Below are positions 3,252 through 63,934 of a DNA stretch of 64,000 nucleotides, piece after piece; position 1 is the first letter of the stretch; each line of letters begins with the position of its first letter. The notes beneath the pieces are model-generated. The model saw only the letters and a list, made by a program, of their open reading frames with translations, did no database searches and was not told where the DNA came from. The stretch is from positions 177-64,176 of the forward strand of contig JAITMS010000017.1 of NCBI GenBank assembly GCA_031277255.1, given 5' to 3'. The DNA comes from Azonexus sp. (lineage in GTDB: Bacteria > Pseudomonadota > Gammaproteobacteria > Burkholderiales > Rhodocyclaceae). The position numbers were made by a program, and so were the translations under genes.

Positions 3252-3959
3252 TCAATCGCCGCCGCCGCCGCCGCATCCCCCGCCACAGCCGCCGCCATCT
3301 CCGCCACTGCCGGAATCATCGCTACCTGAGGCATCACTGCCTGAATGGCCGAAACCGTCGGTGCCGCCGTCGATTGATGAGCGACCGAAGTCGCCGCCGC
3401 ATTGCGCGCCGGCGACTCCGCTCTGGCGTAATTGCGCGCAATCCGGGTGGTAAACGTAGCCGTTGGGAATGTTGTATTTCACGTCCAGGGCAAAAAGCAG
3501 CGGCAGCCGGGTGGGTTTCACCGGATGGATGCCTTCTTCCTTGCAGCAGTGCCACCAGACGCGCCGCAGCCCGGCGTTTGATGCCTTGTGCGCTGGCGAC
3601 AGCACAACAGCGGGCGTGTGATGAAAAAAGCGGCCAAAGGCTTTGTCGCAGAAATGTCGATATTCACGGGTGTAGAGGATGAATTCATGCCAGAGGTCGT
3701 CGGCGACTTGCGATGGCATGGCGACATATTGACGACCGCTGCGAAGATAAGCCATGAAAAACTGACGCAGCCCCTGACTGACCAAGGCTGTTTCCTTGCG
3801 GGTAAATTGCGGGTAACGCTTGGCCAGTTTATCGAGCAGACCGGGCGGCCAGCGATAATCGCGGATAAATTCGGCGCGCCGCGCCTGTTTCACCGTATGA
3901 AAGAGTGGCCAGGCCAAAAGGAATAAAAGGGCGGCTATCGCTACCGAGAGGTATCCCAT
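3252..3959 (-). CDS. membrane-anchored hypothetical protein with C-terminal Gly/Ser/Asp/Cys low-complexity tail
   Basis: Start trimmed to MGYLSVAIAALLFLL (CAT at 3957-3959) so it no longer overlaps yajD. One N-terminal TM, a conserved-looking WHEFILYTREY core, and the tail GGDGGGCGGGCGGGGGD. Confidence 0.55.
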   Translation of the reverse strand: MGYLSVAIAALLFLLAWPLFHTVKQARRAEFIRDYRWPPGLLDKLAKRYPQFTRKETALVSQGLRQFFMAYLRSGRQYVAMPSQVADDLWHEFILYTREYRHFCDKAFGRFFHHTPAVVLSPAHKASNAGLRRVWWHCCKEEGIHPVKPTRLPLLFALDVKYNIPNGYVYHPDCAQLRQSGVAGAQCGGDFGRSSIDGGTDGFGHSGSDASGSDDSGSGGDGGGCGGGCGGGGGD

Positions 3960-7120: not shown

Positions 7121-7714
7121 ATGAAACTTACGCCGCGTCAGCAGGAAATTCTGGATTTCATTAAAAGTTCGCTGGAAACGCTGGGCGCGCCGCCGACGCG
7201 GGTGGAGATTGCCAGCGCCTTCGGTTTTGCTTCGCCCAATGCGGCGGAGGATCATCTGAGGGCGCTGGCGAAAAAGGGGGCTATCGTTCTTGAACCTGGC
7301 TCGGCGCGCGGCATCCGCCTTGTCGAGCAGCTTGGTTTGCCGCTCATCGGCAGCGTTGCCGCCGGTTCGCCGATTCTTGCCGTTGAAAACGTGCAGGGGC
7401 GTTATGCGCTCGATGCCGGGCTGTTCAGTCCGCGCGCCGATTTTTTGCTCAAGGTGCGCGGGCTGTCGATGATCGACGCCGGTATTCTTGATGGCGATCT
7501 GCTCGCCGTGCACAAAACCAGCCAGGGGCGGGATGGGCAGATTGTCGTCGCCCGGCTGGATGATGACGTGACCGTCAAGCGGCTGGAGATTCGCGCCGGA
7601 CACATCCGCCTGCTGGCTGAAAACCCCGATTTCGCGCCGATTGTCGTCAATCCGGGCGAAGTCGAGTTCGCCATCGAGGGCATTGCCGTCGGCCTTATCC
7701 GTGGCGCTACATAG
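7121..7714 (+). CDS. lexA: LexA repressor
   Basis: [14 protein letters not shown]..., winged-helix N-domain, AG cleavage site region (VAAGSP), S24 peptidase C-domain. GGAG RBS at 7111-7114. The ORF-track start at 7106 is a TTG. Confidence 0.95.
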
Positions 7715-7862
7715 AGGACAGAAGACGGAGGACAGAAGACAGAGGGGTATTCAGTGAGCAGCCATCAGAAAATTTTCGGCGCGAAGCGCCGCAAATCAGC
7801 AGACCACAGACTACCTCTCTGTCTTCTGTCTTCTGTCCTCCGTCTTCTGCCCTCCGTCTTCC
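7714..7862. repeat. heptamer-armed hairpin element, copy 1
   Basis: Left arm 7714-7746 (GAG GACAGAA GACGGAG GACAGAA GACAGAG GG). Right arm 7816-7862 is the complement (CTCTGTC TTCTGTC...). The 69-nt core contains CGGCGCGAAGCGCCG. Confidence 0.8.
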
Positions 7863-7996
7863 GGGTCGTTGAAGGGCAGGTTGGCGGCTTCGTCGAAATC
7901 CTTGCGCCGTTTGCTGCTGTAGGCCCAGATGGCGATGACCAGAAAGCAGATGAGGCCGGCGACGGTGACGAGGGAGCGCATATCGTTGATGTCCAT
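7811..7996 (-). CDS. CcoQ/FixQ-like small membrane protein (cbb3 oxidase subunit 3 family), orphan
   Basis: 61 aa. MDINDMRSLVTVAGLICFLVIAIWAY resembles CcoQ/FixQ N-termini. No ccoNOP nearby. The last 16 or so codons lie in the repeat arm. Confidence 0.55.
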   Translation of the reverse strand: MDINDMRSLVTVAGLICFLVIAIWAYSSKRRKDFDEAANLPFNDPEDGGQKTEDRRQKTER

Positions 7997-11321: not shown

Positions 11322-13175
11322 ATGTCCGCTCGTCCCATCCGCAATATCGCCATCATCGCCCACGTCGATCATGGCAAAACCACGCTGGTCGACCAACTGC
11401 TCCGTCAATCCGGCACCTTTGCCGCCCACCAGCAGGTCGATGAGCGCGTCATGGATTCCGGCGATCTGGAACGGGAGCGCGGCATTACCATTCTGGCCAA
11501 AAACACGGCCATTGATTATCAGGGCGTCCACATCAATATCGTCGATACGCCGGGCCACGCCGATTTCGGCGGCGAGGTCGAGCGCGTGCTGGGCATGGTC
11601 GATGGCGTCGTGCTCCTGGTCGACGCCGTTGAAGGGCCGATGCCGCAGACGCGCTTCGTGACCAAAAAGGCGCTGGCCCAGGGTTTGCGCCCGATCGTGC
11701 TGGTCAACAAGGTCGACCGCGACGGCGGCGACCCGGACAACGCCGTCAATCTCACCTTCGACCTTTTCGACAAACTGGGCGCGACCGACGAACAGCTTGA
11801 TTTTCCGATTGTTTACGCCTCCGGCCTTAACGGCTGGGCGGCGCTGTCGCTCGATGCGCCGCGCGTCGACATGAAACCCCTGTTCGACATGATTCTGTCG
11901 CACGTGCCCGCGCCCGACGCCGATGTTGACGCGCCCCTGCAATTCCAGATTTCGGCGCTCGATTACTCCTCCTACGTCGGCCGCATCGGCGTTGGCCGGA
12001 TCAAGCGCGGCAGGGTCAAAACCGGGCAGAACGTGCTCATCCTGTTCGGCACCGAGGAAGAAGCCATCGAGCACGAACGGACGCCGATCAAAGCCAGAAT
12101 CGGCCAGGTTTTCGGTTACCAGGGCCTGAACAAGATCGAACTGGACGAAGGCTGCGCCGGTGACATCGTGCAGATTACCGGCATTGAAGACCTCGTTCTC
12201 GGCTGCACCGTGACCGACCCGGAACAGCCGGAAACCCTGCCCCTCCTCAAAATCGACGAACCGACCCTGGCCATGCAGTTCATGGTCAACACCAGCCCGC
12301 TGGCTGGCACCGAAGGCAAGTTCGTCACCAGCCGCCAGTTGCGCGACCGCCTGCACAAAGAACTCCTGACCAACATGGCGCTGCGCGTGCACGACACGCC
12401 GAATGGCGATATTTTCGATGTCGCGGGCCGCGGCGAACTGCATCTCGGCATCCTCCTCGAAAACATGCGCCGCGAAGGCTACGAACTGGCCGTTGGCCGT
12501 CCGCGCGTGGTCAAAAAGACGATCGGCGGCGTCGACTGCGAACCTTACGAAATGCTCACCGTCGACGTCGAAGAAGACCATCAGGGCGGCGTCATGGAAG
12601 CCCTTGGGCTACGCCGGGGCGAAATGCTCGACATGATCCCGGATGGCCGCGGCCGCGTGCGCATCGAATACCGCATTCCGGCGCGCGGCCTGATCGGCTT
12701 TCAGGGCGAATTTATGAATCTGACCCGCGGCACCGGCCTCATCAGCCACGTCTTTGACGAATACGCGCCGGTCAGAGACGGCGGCGTTGCCGAACGCCGC
12801 AACGGCGTGCTGATTTCGCAAGACAACGGCGAAGCCGTGGCCTATGCGCTGTGGAAACTGCAAGACCGGGGCCGGATGTTCGTCAACCCCGGCGAAAAGC
12901 TCTACGAAGGCATGATTATCGGCATCCACAGCCGCGACAACGATCTCGTCGTCAACCCGATCAAAGGCAAACAACTGACCAATGTCCGCGCCTCCGGCAC
13001 CGACGAAGCGGTGCGCCTGGTGCCGCCAATCCAGTTGAGCCTCGAAGCCGCCATCGAATTCATCGCCGACGACGAACTGGTCGAACTGACGCCCAAATCC
13101 ATCCGCCTGAGAAAACGCCATTTAACCGAAATCGAACGCAAGCGAGCGAGCAGAGGACAGAGGACTGAGGACTGA
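11322..13175 (+). CDS. typA: translational GTPase TypA/BipA
   Basis: 617 aa. [36 protein letters not shown]-motifs and BipA-specific C-terminal domain. The last 8 codons lie in the repeat arm. Confidence 0.95.
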
Positions 13176-13287
13176 GGACGGTAAGCGACGTAGGCTGGGT
13201 TAGCGCAGCGTAACCCAGCATCGTTCAGCCCAAGCTGGGATTACACTTCGTTCCATCCCAGCCTACCTTCCTGTCCTCCGTCCTCCC
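13151..13287. repeat. heptamer-armed hairpin element, copy 2
   Basis: Left arm CAGAG GACAGAG GACTGAG GACTGAG GACGG. Right arm TTCCTGTCCTCCGTCCTCCC. The core carries nested GTAGGCTGGG...CCCAGCCTAC and TGGGTTAGCGCAGCGTAACCCA hairpins. Lies between convergent typA and moaA. Confidence 0.75.
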
Positions 13288-13291
13288 AACC

Positions 13292-54890: not shown

Positions 54891-57800
54891 CTATGCCGCC
54901 TGAGTCAATTCCCGAATCATATCTTTTATCGCCGCCACTTTGGCTTGCAGAGTGGGCGAGTGGCGCAGGAGGGAGATTTTTTCCGGCCCGGCGAGTTTGT
55001 AGTTACGGTTTTTTTGGATCAGATGGATGATCCGGGCTGGCTCGATCGGTGGGTTTTGGGCAAATTCGGGGCTGAACTGGAGGGTGATCTGGTCGTTACC
55101 GGCGTCGAGTTTGGCGATTTGTAGCGGTTTGATGAGTAGCCGCAGGCGGTGCGTCGCCAGTAGCGCCTCGGTTTGCGGCGGCAGGGGGCCGAAGCGGTCG
55201 ATCAGTTCTTCTTGCAGGGCGTCGATTTCTTCGCGGGTTTCGCCGTTGGCCAGCCGTTTGTAGAGGGTCAGGCGCTCGTGCACGTCGGGGCAGTAGTTGT
55301 CGGGGAGGAGGGCCGGGGCGCGCAGGTTGATTTCGCCGCTGACGCCGATGGGCTGGGTCAAATCCACTGTTTCCAGAACTTTGCCTTGTTTGAGGCAGCC
55401 GACGGCGCGGTTGAGCATGTCGGCGTACAGATTGAAGCCGACTTCCTGCATTTCGCCGGATTGGTTGTCGCCCAGGACTTCGCCCGCGCCGCGAATTTCG
55501 AGGTCGTGCATGGCGAGGTAAAAACCGGCGCCGAGGTCTTCCATCATCTGGATCGCTTCGAGCCGCTGCCTGGCTTGCCGGGTCATCGCTTTTTCGTCAT
55601 TGACCAGAAGATAGGCGTAAGCCTGATGGTGCGAGCGGCCAACGCGGCCGCGCAACTGGTGCAACTGGGCGAGGCCGAATTTTTCGGCGCGGTTGATGAG
55701 AATGGTGTTGGCGTGCGGATTGTCGATGCCGGTTTCGATAATGGTGGTGCATAAGAGCAGATTGGCGCGCTGGCTGGTGAAGTCGCGCATCGCCCGTTCC
55801 AGGTCGCGTTCGGCCATCTGGCCGTGGCCGACGGCGAGACGCGCCTCCGGCAGGAGTTTTTCCAGCTTCTCCCGCATGGCCTCGATGCTGTGCACTTCGT
55901 TGTGCAGGAAATACACCTGGCCGCCGCGTTTCAATTCGCGCAGCGCGGCTTCGCGGATGATGCCGTCGGATAGCCGCGAGACAAAGGTTTTGATCGCCAG
56001 CCGCTTTTGCGGCGCGGTGGCGATGACCGAAAAATCGCGCAAGCCTTCGAGGCTCATCGCCAGTGTGCGCGGAATCGGCGTCGCTGTCAGCGTCAGCACG
56101 TCGACCTCGGCGCGCATGGCTTTGAGGGTTTCTTTCTGGCGCACGCCGAAACGGTGTTCTTCGTCGATGATGACGAGGCCCAGACGCTTGAATCTGACCG
56201 CCTTGCCGATCAGTTTGTGGGTGCCGATGATGATGTCGATCTTGCCCGCGGCGAGATCGTCGAGCGCCTCTCCCGCTTCTTTCGGTGTCCGAAAGCGCGA
56301 CAGTTCGGCGATTTTGACCGGCCATTCGGCAAAGCGGTCGGCGAAAGTCTGGTAATGCTGCTCGCACAACAGCGTCGTCGGACAGAGCACGGCCACCTGC
56401 CTGCCGCCAGCGACGGCGCAGAAAGCGGCGCGCAGCGCCACTTCCGTTTTGCCGAAACCGACATCGCCGCAGACCAGCCGATCCATCGGCTTGCCGGATT
56501 TCATGTCGTCGAGCACGGCGGCAATGGCCGCTGCCTGATCGGCGGTTTCCTCAAAAGCGAAGCCGTCGGCAAAGGTTTCGTAATCCTTGTCGGCAAAGCT
56601 GAAGGCATGGCCTTGGCGGGCGGCGCGGGCGGCGTAGAGGGCGAGCAGTTCGGCGGCGGTGTCGCGGGCCTGTTCCGCCGCCTTGCGTTTGGCTTTTTCC
56701 CACTGGCCGGAACCGAGCGTGTGCAGGGGCGCGGCTTCCGGGTCGGCACCGGAATAACGCGCGATGACGGCGAGTTGCGCCACCGGGACAAAGAGCTTGG
56801 CGTCATTGGCGTAATGGAGTTCGAGAAATTCCTGCTCGCCCAGCCCTAGATCCATCCGCACCAAGCCCTGATAACGGCCAATGCCGTGACTCTCATGGAC
56901 GACCGGATCGCCGATCTTGAGTTCGGTCAGGTCTTTGAGCCAGTTGTCGAAAGCGGCTTTTTTCGCCGCTTCCCGCCGGGCGCGGCGCGGGCTACCAGCG
57001 AACAGTTCAGCTTCGCTGACGAAAGCCAGATTGTCGATGACAAAACCGGCGTGCAACGGCGCAACGCCAAGGGCAAGCTTGTCGCCGCCGTCGACAAAAG
57101 CCTTGAGATCAGGGCAGGCCGCTGGTTTGAGGCCGTGTTCGGCGAGCATCGCCGCCAGCGTCTCACGACGGCCCGCGCTTTCCGCCACCAGCAGAACCCG
57201 CCCCGGCCAGGCGGCGAGAAAGTGTTTGAGGGCGGCCAGCGGATCGTCGGCGCGGCGGTCGATGGCGACGCTGTCGCTCAGAGGACAGAAGACAGAGGAC
57301 AGAGGACTGTGAATTTGCGGCGGCGATCCCCCCATCCCGACCTTCCCCCCGCTTGCGAGGGTGCCTCCCCTCTCCCGCTTGCGGGAGAGGGGCAGGGGTT
57401 GAGGGCTGGCCGCCGGTAACGGGCTGTCTTCCGTCTTCTGTCCTCTGTCTTCTGTTTTCAAAACCAGCCGGGCGTAGGGTTTAGCGGCGCTGAAAAACTC
57501 CTCATCGGTCAGGAACAGTTCTTCCGGCGTCAGCAAGGGCCGCGCCTTGTCGCCTTGCAGGAGCCTGTAGCGCGAACGGGTGTCCATCCAGAAGGCGGCG
57601 ATTGCGGCGGGCGCGTCGCCTTGTGTGACGAACACGGCATTCGGCGGCAGATAGTCGAACAACGTCGCCGTCGCCGAAAAAAACAGGGGCAGGTAATACT
57701 CGATCCCGGCGCTGGCGATACCGCTGGAGACATCCTTGTAAATCCCCGATTTCGCCGGGTCGCCCTCAAAACGCTCGCGGAAAGCCTGCCGGAAGCGCGT

Positions 57801-58490
57801 CCGCCCGGCGTCGTCGAGCGGAAATTCGCGGGCGGGCAGGAGACGGATTTCGTTGACCGGATAGACCGTGCGCTGCGTATCGACATCAAAAGTGCGGATG
57901 CTGTCGATCTCGTCATCAAAGAGATCGAGCCGGTAAGGCAGGGGCGACCCCATCGGAAACAGGTCGATCAACCCGCCGCGAATCGAATACTCGCCCGGCG
58001 ACACCACCTGCGTCACATGGGCGTAACCGGCCAGCGTCACCTGATCGCGGAACTTCCCGGCATCGAGCCGCTGCCCCTTTTGGAAAGCAAAGGTATAAGC
58101 CGCCATGAACTCCGGCGGCGCCAACCGTCCCACCGCTGTCGCCGCCGGCGCCAGCAGAATATCCAGTTCCCCCTGCAAGGCCGCCCACAGCGTCGCCAGC
58201 CGCTCGGAAACCAGATCCTGATGCGGCGAAAAATGGTCGTAAGGCAAAGTCTCCCAATCCGGCAGCAGACGCACGCGCAATTGCGGCGCGAACCAGGGGA
58301 TTTCTTCGAGCAAACGCCGGGCATCCGCCGCCGTCGCCGTCACCACCGCCAGCAAACGCCCGGCGCGGACAGCCGCCGCGGACAGCATCAAGGCATCGCC
58401 GGAGCCGACAGGCGACGGCAGATCAAGACGATGACCGGGACGGGGCAGGGTGGGGAGAAAAGAGCGGGGGAGCAGGGGAGAAGCGGACAC
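54891..58490 (-). CDS. mfd: transcription-repair coupling factor Mfd (carries an in-frame repeat insertion)
   Basis: 1199 aa. UvrB-homology N-terminus, RNAP-interaction domain, GDVGFGKTEVA Walker A, DEEHRFG, TATPIPRT, TRG motif region, C-terminal D7. Confidence 0.95.
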   Translation of the reverse strand: MSASPLLPRSFLPTLPRPGHRLDLPSPVGSGDALMLSAAAVRAGRLLAVVTATAADARRLLEEIPWFAPQLRVRLLPDWETLPYDHFSPHQDLVSERLATLWAALQGELDILLAPAATAVGRLAPPEFMAAYTFAFQKGQRLDAGKFRDQVTLAGYAHVTQVVSPGEYSIRGGLIDLFPMGSPLPYRLDLFDDEIDSIRTFDVDTQRTVYPVNEIRLLPAREFPLDDAGRTRFRQAFRERFEGDPAKSGIYKDVSSGIASAGIEYYLPLFFSATATLFDYLPPNAVFVTQGDAPAAIAAFWMDTRSRYRLLQGDKARPLLTPEELFLTDEEFFSAAKPYARLVLKTEDRGQKTEDSPLPAASPQPLPLSRKRERGGTLASGGKVGMGGSPPQIHSPLSSVFCPLSDSVAIDRRADDPLAALKHFLAAWPGRVLLVAESAGRRETLAAMLAEHGLKPAACPDLKAFVDGGDKLALGVAPLHAGFVIDNLAFVSEAELFAGSPRRARREAAKKAAFDNWLKDLTELKIGDPVVHESHGIGRYQGLVRMDLGLGEQEFLELHYANDAKLFVPVAQLAVIARYSGADPEAAPLHTLGSGQWEKAKRKAAEQARDTAAELLALYAARAARQGHAFSFADKDYETFADGFAFEETADQAAAIAAVLDDMKSGKPMDRLVCGDVGFGKTEVALRAAFCAVAGGRQVAVLCPTTLLCEQHYQTFADRFAEWPVKIAELSRFRTPKEAGEALDDLAAGKIDIIIGTHKLIGKAVRFKRLGLVIIDEEHRFGVRQKETLKAMRAEVDVLTLTATPIPRTLAMSLEGLRDFSVIATAPQKRLAIKTFVSRLSDGIIREAALRELKRGGQVYFLHNEVHSIEAMREKLEKLLPEARLAVGHGQMAERDLERAMRDFTSQRANLLLCTTIIETGIDNPHANTILINRAEKFGLAQLHQLRGRVGRSHHQAYAYLLVNDEKAMTRQARQRLEAIQMMEDLGAGFYLAMHDLEIRGAGEVLGDNQSGEMQEVGFNLYADMLNRAVGCLKQGKVLETVDLTQPIGVSGEINLRAPALLPDNYCPDVHERLTLYKRLANGETREEIDALQEELIDRFGPLPPQTEALLATHRLRLLIKPLQIAKLDAGNDQITLQFSPEFAQNPPIEPARIIHLIQKNRNYKLAGPEKISLLRHSPTLQAKVAAIKDMIRELTQAA
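57279..57456. repeat. heptamer-armed hairpin element, copy 3, inside the mfd coding sequence
   Basis: Left arm 57279-57307 (CAGAG GACAGAA GACAGAG GACAGAG GAC). Right arm 57425-57456 (TGTCTTC CGTCTTC TGTCCTC TGTCTTC TGTT). The core contains the palindrome CCCCTCTCCCGC-TT-GCGGGAGAGGGG (57367-57392). Confidence 0.8.
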
Positions 58491-62913: not shown

Positions 62914-63714
62914 TCAGCCAATCCATTCCGGCTTGGCCCGGCAACCGGCGGAAAGGGTCATCACCTCGTAGCCGCTCTCCGTCACCAGCACCGTGTGTTC
63001 CCACTGCGCCGAGAGGCTGCGGTCCTTGGTGACGATGGTCCAGCCATCCGGCATTTCGCGGATCGCCGCCTTGCCCGCGTTAATCATCGGCTCAATGGTG
63101 AAGGTCATGCCCGGCTCCAGGCGCGGGCCGGTGCCAGCCTTGCCGTAGTGCAGCACCTGCGGCTCCTCGTGGAATTTCCGGCCAATGCCGTGGCCGCAAA
63201 ATTCGCGGACGACCGAGTAACCGTTTTTCTCGGCATGTTTTTGAATGACCGCCCCGATGTCGCCCAAAAAAGCGCCAGGCCGCACGACCGAGATGCCGAG
63301 CCACAGGCACTCAAAGGTAATCTCGCACAGACGCCGGGCTTGAATGGAGCCTGCGCCGACGATGAACATGCGGCTCGTGTCGCCATGAAAACCATCCTTG
63401 ATGGTCGTAATGTCGAGATTGACGATGTCGCCATTCTTGAGCACCCGCTCACCCGGCACGCCGTGGCAGACCTGCTGGTTGACCGAGGCGCAGATCGACT
63501 TCGGATACGGGTTGTAGCCGGAAGGCGCGTAATTGAGCGGGGCCGGGATGCAACCCTGAACATCGACCATCAGATCGTGACAGAGGCGATCCAGTTCATC
63601 GGTCGTGACGCCGGGCTTGACGAAGGGTTCGATATAGTCGAGCACCTCGCTGGCGAGACGCCCGGCGACGCGCATTTTTTCAATATCCTCAGGCGTTTTG
63701 ATCGAAATGCTCAT
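62914..63714 (-). CDS. map: type I methionine aminopeptidase
   Basis: IKTPEDIEKMRVAGRL, metal ligands in DIVNLDIT, GHGIG, EPMI, and HTVLVT motifs. Confidence 0.95.
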   Translation of the reverse strand: MSISIKTPEDIEKMRVAGRLASEVLDYIEPFVKPGVTTDELDRLCHDLMVDVQGCIPAPLNYAPSGYNPYPKSICASVNQQVCHGVPGERVLKNGDIVNLDITTIKDGFHGDTSRMFIVGAGSIQARRLCEITFECLWLGISVVRPGAFLGDIGAVIQKHAEKNGYSVVREFCGHGIGRKFHEEPQVLHYGKAGTGPRLEPGMTFTIEPMINAGKAAIREMPDGWTIVTKDRSLSAQWEHTVLVTESGYEVMTLSAGCRAKPEWIG

Positions 63715-63750
63715 GGCGGCGCGGCGTTGGGGGAGGGGAGTGAAGAATAG

Positions 63751-63895
63751 CAGAGGACAGAAGACTGAGGACAGAAGACAGAGAGGTGGTCAGTCGTCAG
63801 TCAGTTACCGGCGCGTAGCGCCGCAAACCAACAGATTACAGACCACTGAATACAAATCTGTCTTCTGTCCTCTGTCTTCTGTCTTCTGTCCTCTG
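63751..63895. repeat. heptamer-armed hairpin element, copy 4
   Basis: Left arm CAGAG GACAGAA GACTGAG GACAGAA GACAGAG AGG. Right arm CTGTCTTCTGTCCTCTGTCTTCTGTCTTCTGTCCTCTGG. The core is the reverse complement of the copy 1 core (GTATTCAGTG..., CGGCGCGTAGCGCCG). Confidence 0.8.
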
Positions 63896-63934
63896 GCATA
63901 CTGCCGCCGTTTTCAGACTACGGACGAGGCGGGG

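Follow-up and report, generated by a model that had tools for sequence, protein, structure and literature searches.

Tandem heptanucleotide arrays, among them the STRR, GGGAATC and TAACTGA repeats and the paired arrays of Geobacter, have been reported from bacterial genomes for decades and remain unexplained. The STRR repeats are tandem heptamers of cyanobacteria, reportedly described by Mazel in 1990. We describe here a family of hairpin elements whose stems are made of inverted arrays of the heptamer GACNGAR, four copies of which lie in a 64,000-nucleotide stretch of Azonexus sp. DNA (NCBI GenBank assembly GCA_031277255.1, contig JAITMS010000017.1, positions 177 to 64,176 of the forward strand); we refer to this whole stretch as the window.

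Several described systems invite comparison. In the 23S rRNA of Coxiella burnetii, the intervening sequence (IVS) has a 28-bp stem composed of two to three GACAGAT units and a GACAGAA unit; strains vary in the number of units, and in vitro RNase III cleaves inside the stem (Warrier et al. 2016, PMC4990558). Xanthomonas campestris and X. axonopodis carry about 185 GGGAATC arrays per genome, mostly of four units and forming 70–75 convergent opposite-strand pairs, and these arrays, some 90% of which are intergenic and near the end of the upstream open reading frame (ORF), have been read as formers of G-quadruplexes (Rehm et al. 2015, PMC4692102). Paired arrays of 3–5 hepta- or octanucleotide units in Geobacter metallireducens have been described as 'global regulator binding sites' (Aklujkar et al. 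2009, PMC2700814), and TAACTGA repeats are reported from the Beggiatoaceae in a paper that also reviews heptamer repeats (MacGregor 2015, PMC4679880).

The elements of the window belong to a family that is spread through the genome, that has been copied in whole units, and that occupies sites which are empty in other members of the genus. We consider it probable that they are gene-less, miniature, selfish members of a class of heptamer-armed, IVS-like foldback cassettes. Cassettes of this class would have stems of inverted arrays of about four tandem heptamers, and the gene-carrying members, including the Coxiella burnetii IVS, would hold in the loop a small four-helix-bundle gene (PF05635, '23S rRNA intervening-sequence protein', a relative of Avd, the accessory protein of DGRs).

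GACNGAR-armed hairpins in the window and the genome

A search for three tandem GACNGAR units with no more than one mismatch gives 18 matches in the window, every one of them within four loci (Table 1), and none in 100 dinucleotide-preserving shuffles; we relied on shuffles because a reversed (GACAGAA)n is a rotation of itself, which makes reversed sequence invalid as a control. The period-7 arrays of the window were also found independently by Tandem Repeats Finder (TRF). Copy 1 folds as a single long hairpin (-86 kcal/mol, z = -8.5; none of 200 shuffles folds as well), and all 31 paired elements of the genome fold as it does. The first-pass annotation, made from the letters of the window, had recognized four copies of a hairpin family with heptamer-built stems of 25–40 bp, and both the copies and the hairpins are real. 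It described left arms of 4–5 units and right arms of 3–6 units; in the right arm of copy 2 only two or three units are recognizable. Its proposal that copies 1 and 4 share one core in opposite orientations is not supported: the alignment of copy 4 to copy 1 scores nearly the same for the two strands (111 vs 101 bits), and the sequences flanking the central hairpin (...GCCGCAAA), which are asymmetric, have one direction in the two copies.

The window is C169:177-64176 of a 3.23-Mb metagenome-assembled genome (MAG; referred to as G000) with 183 contigs and 62% GC. The identity of Accumulibacter loci is only ~71%. The genome-wide pattern search that had been proposed at the outset uncovers many further copies, with 43 purine-rich and 44 pyrimidine-rich arrays that together define about 59 loci; 31 of these were paired automatically and the remainder are mostly degenerate on one side. 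Of the 88 period-7 arrays that TRF gives for the whole genome, 58 are of the GACNGAR/YTCNGTC kind. At six of the 59 loci a contig end is no more than 300 nt away, and the repeats are places where contigs of this fragmented MAG tend to break; the Logan contigs for two DNA runs break inside the arms, and are silent on polymorphism in arm length. Searches with the window and with an Accumulibacter locus turned up no RNA runs.

Among 340 arm units the most frequent are GACAGAG (131), GACAGAA (81), GACTGAG (27), GACGGAG (18) and GACAGAT (17, the fifth commonest), followed by others. Four units (28 bp) is the modal arm length, seen in 21 of the 43 left arms and 17 of the 44 right arms, and the range is from 2 to 11, a variation such as slippage would give in arms that had been predicted to be prone to it. 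The outermost units are the most degenerate. Beyond them, the outer end of the element has the form G-W-TCAGAG, with CTCTGA-W-C at the right end; the CAGAG beside the outermost perfect unit is kept at 41–55 of 59 ends per position, and among the bases preceding it there is a T in 31, an A or T in 44, and a G in 29 of the 59. The elements thus have terminal inverted repeats, as do miniature inverted-repeat transposable elements (MITEs). At the Rfam gathering score the window copies have no match, the sole match in the window being to one tRNA.

Between the arms, 18 copies share a long core of 82 nt that can be aligned throughout. Its 5′ part reads GGGTRTTCAGT-GNNCAGTNAT-CAGYC-AATTTCC and leads into a GC stem-loop, after which the 3′ part reads GCAAA-CCAACAGAC-NACAGA-NNACAGACTACCC; the stem sequence of the GC stem-loop varies among copies while its pairing is kept. 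Conservation in the core is periodic, a CAG every 7 nt being constant and the bases between variable, and because the CAG lies on the same strand in both sub-arms, the inner helix contains regular A·A or U·U mismatches. One strand of the element folds better than the other by 6–15 kcal/mol, through G·U pairs. There is also a short form, with only GACAGTCAATTTCC, a GC hairpin and GCAAATTGACTGTC between the arms.

We note in addition a second family of about ten hairpin elements with a like core and with arms of (CAGGRAT/CGGGRAT)n, the Xanthomonas GGGAATC type, at C55 (minus strand, near 2484), C41:14220-14330, C26, C49, C51, C130:8576, C153:4229 and C167. Both heptamer families have a CAG every 7 nt in the arms, the end unit and the sub-arms, and there is one hybrid (C98:1206-1330) in which the outer arms are of the second-family type and the inner right arm consists of YTCNGTC units.

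Filled sites, unit copying and placement

Comparison with relatives reveals what two of the insertion sites look like without the element. Copy 3 is read through in frame within mfd, to which it adds about 49 codons, and the corresponding insert of about 49 residues is missing from eight orthologues of the same genus, in which the site is a variable linker. Between typA and moaA, relatives have ...RGL* followed by a spacer of 103–243 nt, in which several show a hairpin resembling a terminator, and copy 2 fills this gap exactly, from stop to stop (13148–13290). The closest relative, G006 (typA 89% identical), has no heptamer element directly after typA, its contig ending before moaA. When the site of the element in G006 was sought in G000, the match was to a paralogue. 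We also note that in every congener checked lexA is either on another contig than the fixQ-like/msbA block or far away from it; with these neighborhoods unlinked in relatives, copy 1 marks a rearrangement junction.

The unusual cores of some copies provide clues to how the family has spread. In these, other repetitive extragenic palindrome (REP) doublets have been inserted into the standard core, and both halves of the central stem remain, as with copy 3, where the split halves are at 57313–57325 and 57409–57421. Such composites recur. The cores on C112 and C118 contain the same nested insert and are identical at 104 of 108 positions with near-identical arm patterns, while their flanks are unrelated (49/102), and the composites on C7 and C58 are identical at 116 of 124 positions and have the same internal junctions. 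The suggestion that the arms wrap interchangeable cores applies across genomes, where arms and G-W-TCAGAG ends are shared and loops differ, some of them containing a PF05635 gene, but within this genome the odd cores are standard cores with REP doublets inserted into them, and the composites have been copied whole. A further repeat of about 170 nt (…GTTCGTCCTGAGCTTGTCGAAGGACGG…TAGAGCATTTTCTGTTCAAG…) recurs nested in the loops of heptamer-armed elements (Table 1).

These observations bear on whether the elements have moved at all, since microsatellites might instead expand locally by slippage beside existing hairpins, with the second side arising by template switching. Heptanucleotide repeats are the commonest long class of simple sequence repeats in many bacteria, with slippage proposed as their origin, in the account of Mrazek (2007) that is given in PMC4679880, and local expansion would fit with the common occurrence of one-sided arrays in other genomes, with the spread in unit number and with the degeneracy of the outer units. 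We nevertheless regard this explanation as distinctly improbable, because the same 82-nt core and end motif are present at dozens of unrelated loci, because different loci hold composites whose nested inserts are identical and whose arm patterns are nearly so, and because the core in the typA–moaA gap is not homologous to the ancestral spacer of relatives. Variable positions of left and right arms agree within an element (0.74) no better than between elements (0.716 ± 0.024), which argues against one arm having been copied recently from the other as template; the arms diverge independently after copying, and there is no compensatory evolution between them.

All of the copies lie between or inside protein genes, and none is in helix 9, 25 or 45 of 23S rRNA, where an IVS in the strict sense would be inserted. 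In a census made with a crude gene caller written for this analysis, 13 are in convergent gaps, 23 in tandem gaps and 7 in divergent gaps, and 12 are apparently intragenic, some of these being start-codon artefacts. The window copies illustrate how closely the elements abut genes: the end pentamer TAGAG of copy 1 overlaps the lexA stop codon, its right arm, on the minus strand, supplies the final ~15 codons of the fixQ-like ORF (7811–7996), and the left arm of copy 2 holds the last eight typA codons and the TGA. The initial remark that a 7-nt unit, not being a multiple of three, matters wherever arms are translated is thus pertinent to the typA and fixQ-like tails and to the in-frame insert in mfd. 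When the arms are read on the pyrimidine strand, only 5 of 261 frames contain a stop codon, and on the purine strand 57 of 261 do, and this near absence of stops is likely to have helped the elements to be tolerated. The orientation of the core follows neither GC skew (15/29) nor the majority gene strand (16/29).

A position so close to gene ends might also be expected of elements useful to the host, either as sites for a global regulator or as RNA 3′-end, terminator or stabilizer structures kept by selection. Element edges are typically -29 to +9 nt from stop codons, convergent gaps are enriched (13/43 vs 16% of all gaps), the CAG is kept every 7 nt amid variable bases, arrays recur just downstream of gpT in distant Mu-like contigs, and the four-unit mode is shared with Xanthomonas (PMC4692102) and Geobacter (PMC2700814). 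However, there are copies inside mfd and, as copy 4 illustrates, between divergent genes; 22 of 24 congeners manage without arrays at the same sites, and the GGA motifs lie buried in a perfect stem in the RNA. Relative to genes, the asymmetric core has no preferred strand (8 vs 3, p = 0.23), a 7:1 bias in an initial count not being upheld by the fuller list. Nor is there a T-run 3′ of the hairpin in any of the four window copies, whose right arms end in CTCTGA-W-CC, so that these are not canonical intrinsic terminators. A role of this kind therefore seems rather unlikely, and the elements are most likely selfish and tolerated.

Table 1. Positions of the four window copies and their parts (window coordinates), and loci of a repeat found nested in other copies (contig coordinates)
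Feature	Position	Strand	Remarks
Copy 1, whole element	7712..7864		between convergent lexA and fixQ-like gene, at synteny breakpoint
Copy 1, left arm	7717..7744	+	4 units, GACAGAA GACGGAG GACAGAA GACAGAG
Copy 1, long-form core	7745..7816		left sub-arm GGGTATTCAGTGAGCAGCCATCAG, GC hairpin CGGCGCGAAGCGCCG, right sub-arm CAGCAGACCACAGACTACC
Copy 1, right arm	7817..7858	+	6 YTCNGTC units
Copy 2, whole element	13150..13290		typA–moaA gap
Copy 2, left arm	13156..13183	+	4 units, GACAGAG GACTGAG GACTGAG GACGGTA
Copy 2, nested REP doublet	13190..13266		GTAGGCTGGG type, replaces standard core
Copy 2, right arm	13267..13289	+	degenerate, 2–3 recognizable units
Copy 3, whole element	57278..57465		inside mfd (54891–58490, minus strand)
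Copy 3, left arm	57284..57311	+	4 units
Copy 3, core	57312–57428		
Copy 3, nested REP doublet	57326..57408		CCCTCTCCCGC type, splits central stem of element
Copy 3, right arm	57429..57456	+	4 units
Copy 4, whole element	63750..63897		between divergent map (62914–63714, minus) and rfbD (start near 63926, plus)
Copy 4, left arm	63756..63783	+	4 units
Copy 4, core	63784–63855		
Copy 4, right arm	63856..63897	+	6 units
Nested repeat of ~170 nt	C126:12765-13099, C139:13875-14160, C157:10124-10399, C108:2250-2454, C2:7530-7699		

Distribution, PF05635 cassettes and the question of a mover

The distribution of the arrays is patchy, and the family is a burst specific to its lineage. Arrays of three units are absent from 22 of 24 congeners; in G006 there are a few copies, whose core is related. 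Arrays of four units are present in 12 of 301 genomes of the bacterial family, large numbers being confined to G000 (38), G068 (46), G211 (47) and G261 (15), which represent three genera whose other species have none; the elements may well have arrived horizontally. When the four-unit pattern was sought across all species genomes, many phyla were represented among the matches listed, and 93 viral contigs contain it as well. In G000, seven copies lie between the genes of two related Mu-like prophages (C176:10000-33521 and C53:19000-38500) that carry MuA-like, MuB-like, gpT major head, tail and baseplate genes, and the density of elements there is about eight times the genome-wide density. Six distant Mu-like viral contigs (L285, L286, L261, L252, L205 and L213) have a GACNGAR array a few hundred bases downstream of their gpT homologue. 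A different arrangement is seen in another genus (L162, G068:C2:26500-30000, at 1570–2100), where arms head three direct tandem copies of a GC-rich unit of about 210 nt, each unit beginning GGTTCAGAG(GACNGAR)n with no inverted partner.

Genes of the PF05635 family, which are present in 38 of the 301 genomes of the family and absent from every sampled genome of the genus, provide the link to the rRNA intervening sequences. The first five such genes found in the family and order all adjoin heptamer arrays. Inverted period-7 arrays, usually of about four units, enclose 17 of the 32 genes tested and border on the ORF; another 13 have an array on one side or more, giving 30 of 32 in total. The units differ between cassettes, that of G027 having GGACTGA arms, and in a MAG of the Actinomycetota (L053) the PF05635 ORF lies between (GACAGAG)4-5 and (CTCTGTC)6. 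With both the architecture and the unit shared, the GACNGAR family is linked to IVS-type cassettes, and because the loops of its copies lack a PF05635 gene, we take them to be gene-less derivatives rather than full members of those cassettes. A contig from another genome (L191, G296:C21:1-1995) contains two PF05635 genes 1.4 kb apart, each within its own inverted arms (GAGTGCT and CGCAAGT).

The history that we propose for the elements begins with one founder, which would have been copied whole to about 59 places in this lineage. It would have consisted of G-W-TCAGAG, (GACNGAR)~4, a first sub-arm in which CAG recurs every 7 nt, a small GC hairpin, another sub-arm, (YTCNGTC)~4 and CTCTGA-W-C. 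Copies would survive where they do little harm, that is, against stop codons, in replacement of old spacer, or occasionally in frame inside a gene, and after insertion slippage would add or remove arm units and other REP doublets would enter the loop. By analogy with the Coxiella IVS stem, a transcribed stem of 28–40 bp is a predicted substrate for RNase III, the rnc gene for which is present in G000, and a copy cut in this way would cut or uncouple the host transcript.

Several observations weigh against counting the elements as miniature members of the IVS-like class. A search with our own hidden Markov model (E<=10) gives no PF05635 gene in G000, G006, G068, G211 or G261, so that no partner that might act in trans is in evidence, and PF05635 may be cargo rather than the copying factor. 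In a wider check few PF05635 genes are armed (2.6–7.9%), and neither a gene bounded by heptamer arms, nor a transposase so bounded, nor a master copy was found in the fragmented assembly. A partial 23S probe of ~180 nt has no match to a 23S rRNA gene in the fragmented MAG. The 82-nt core is specific to G000 and was not found in the other array-rich genomes, where shared arms and ends go with different loops and many of the arrays are one-sided, so that common descent of all GACNGAR arrays is not established. Moreover, at both mfd and typA–moaA the element replaces older sequence and there is no clean interruption, and no direct repeat of the kind left by target-site duplication flanks any of the 31 paired elements.

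Hairpin doublet architecture, intergenic position and the same lack of target-site duplication are features of REPINs, the REP doublets that are moved by REP-associated tyrosine transposases (RAYTs), and four matches to the Y1 transposase family are present in G000. Each of the two RAYT-like genes among these (C95:9243-9776 and C156 near 3400–3800) has GTAGG-type REPs of its own, from other families, on its flanks, that at C156 being the REP family nested in copy 2, and hairpins of its own accompany the IS200-like gene on C86. The heptamer elements lack the GTAG-like head conserved in the 20–40-nt imperfect palindromes of REPs, their ends being G-W-TCAGAG followed by tandem units. The Y1 genes also fail to track the arrays across genomes, as G006 has the heptamer family and no Y1 match while G012 has strong Y1 matches and no arrays. 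We consequently rejected RAYT and IS200 genes as candidate movers, and think it very improbable indeed that the heptamer elements are REPINs. An apparent gene-bearing master copy at G211:C68 was also rejected, being rsmB situated between two separate elements, and multicopy proteins in G000 are few.

A bolder interpretation is that heptamer-armed hairpins form one pan-bacterial system, in which arrays of about four units are the recognition sites of element-encoded PF05635 proteins and gene-less copies, such as the 59 described here, are non-autonomous members copied in trans. PF05635 here is an Avd-related pentameric four-helix bundle, and on this view the master might be phage-borne or might since have been lost. 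This would unite the STRR, Xanthomonas and Geobacter arrays with the rRNA intervening sequences, and would make G000 the clearest burst of the gene-less form. We think it unlikely. Large numbers of copies are reached in genomes without PF05635, which shows that a resident gene is not required for them and limits those models in which the PF05635 protein drives copying.

Comparison with known systems

The GACNGAR family adds several features to what has been described for heptanucleotide arrays: a common core that makes the copying of units visible, filled and empty sites within one genus, copies in prophages, and a direct link in sequence, by way of a unit held in common, with 23S rRNA intervening-sequence stems and PF05635 cassettes. 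The repeats are also of practical concern, in that they break assemblies, rewrite protein C-termini and can sit in frame in a conserved repair gene (mfd). The initial statement that the family is unrecognized in the literature holds for the GACNGAR family itself, our literature search finding no paper on tandem GACAGAG strings outside the IVS, but not for elements of this kind, which are known in Xanthomonas, in Geobacter and as the Coxiella IVS.

As small, probably selfish, palindromic repeats that are tolerated at gene ends, the elements resemble REPINs and BIMEs, Correia elements and the Rickettsia palindromic elements. The last of these occur inside genes, as does the mfd insert, and hairpin transcripts of Correia elements are processed by RNase III. 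The heptamer elements differ from REPINs and Correia elements in lacking a GTAG head, a cognate RAYT (which we tested for), a TA duplication and a fixed terminal repeat of 26 bp, and in having microsatellites as arms. With the STRR and TAACTGA repeats they share tandem heptamers in intergenic positions and a patchy occurrence across phyla; those repeats differ in being described mostly as direct arrays, with other units and with no hairpin around a conserved core. We note that the sub-arm unit NAACAGT resembles CAACAGT, which we take to be the unit of STRR3.

The Geobacter arrays are similar in forming opposite-strand pairs of 3–5 units with variable spacing, in numbering dozens per genome and in being lineage-specific. 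Their units (GTTGCTYN, TCTCCGTS, MTYCTGA and GGACCGG) are different, however, and they have been read as regulator sites, their mobility being untested. The Xanthomonas pairs share the form of convergent opposite-strand arrays, mostly of four units, that are intergenic and near ORF ends, and the second family of about ten copies in G000 uses units of that type (CAGGGAT/CGGGAAT), although no common core, copying of units or link to PF05635 was reported for them (PMC4692102). GACNGAR has no run of three Gs, so quadruplexes cannot explain the shared design, and the occurrence of the same design without G-runs argues against the G-quadruplex explanation.

The Coxiella burnetii IVS is present as a single copy in helix 45 of 23S rRNA and carries a PF05635 (S23p) ORF in its loop, whereas here there are some 59 gene-less copies at protein genes, and RNase III cleavage has been demonstrated there, whereas here we infer it. 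Both have a sporadic distribution and a suspected horizontal origin, and both have a stem of similar length (~28 bp in the IVS) built from nearly the same heptamer (GACAGAT/GACAGAA there, GACNGAR here), GACAGAT itself being one of the units of the present family.

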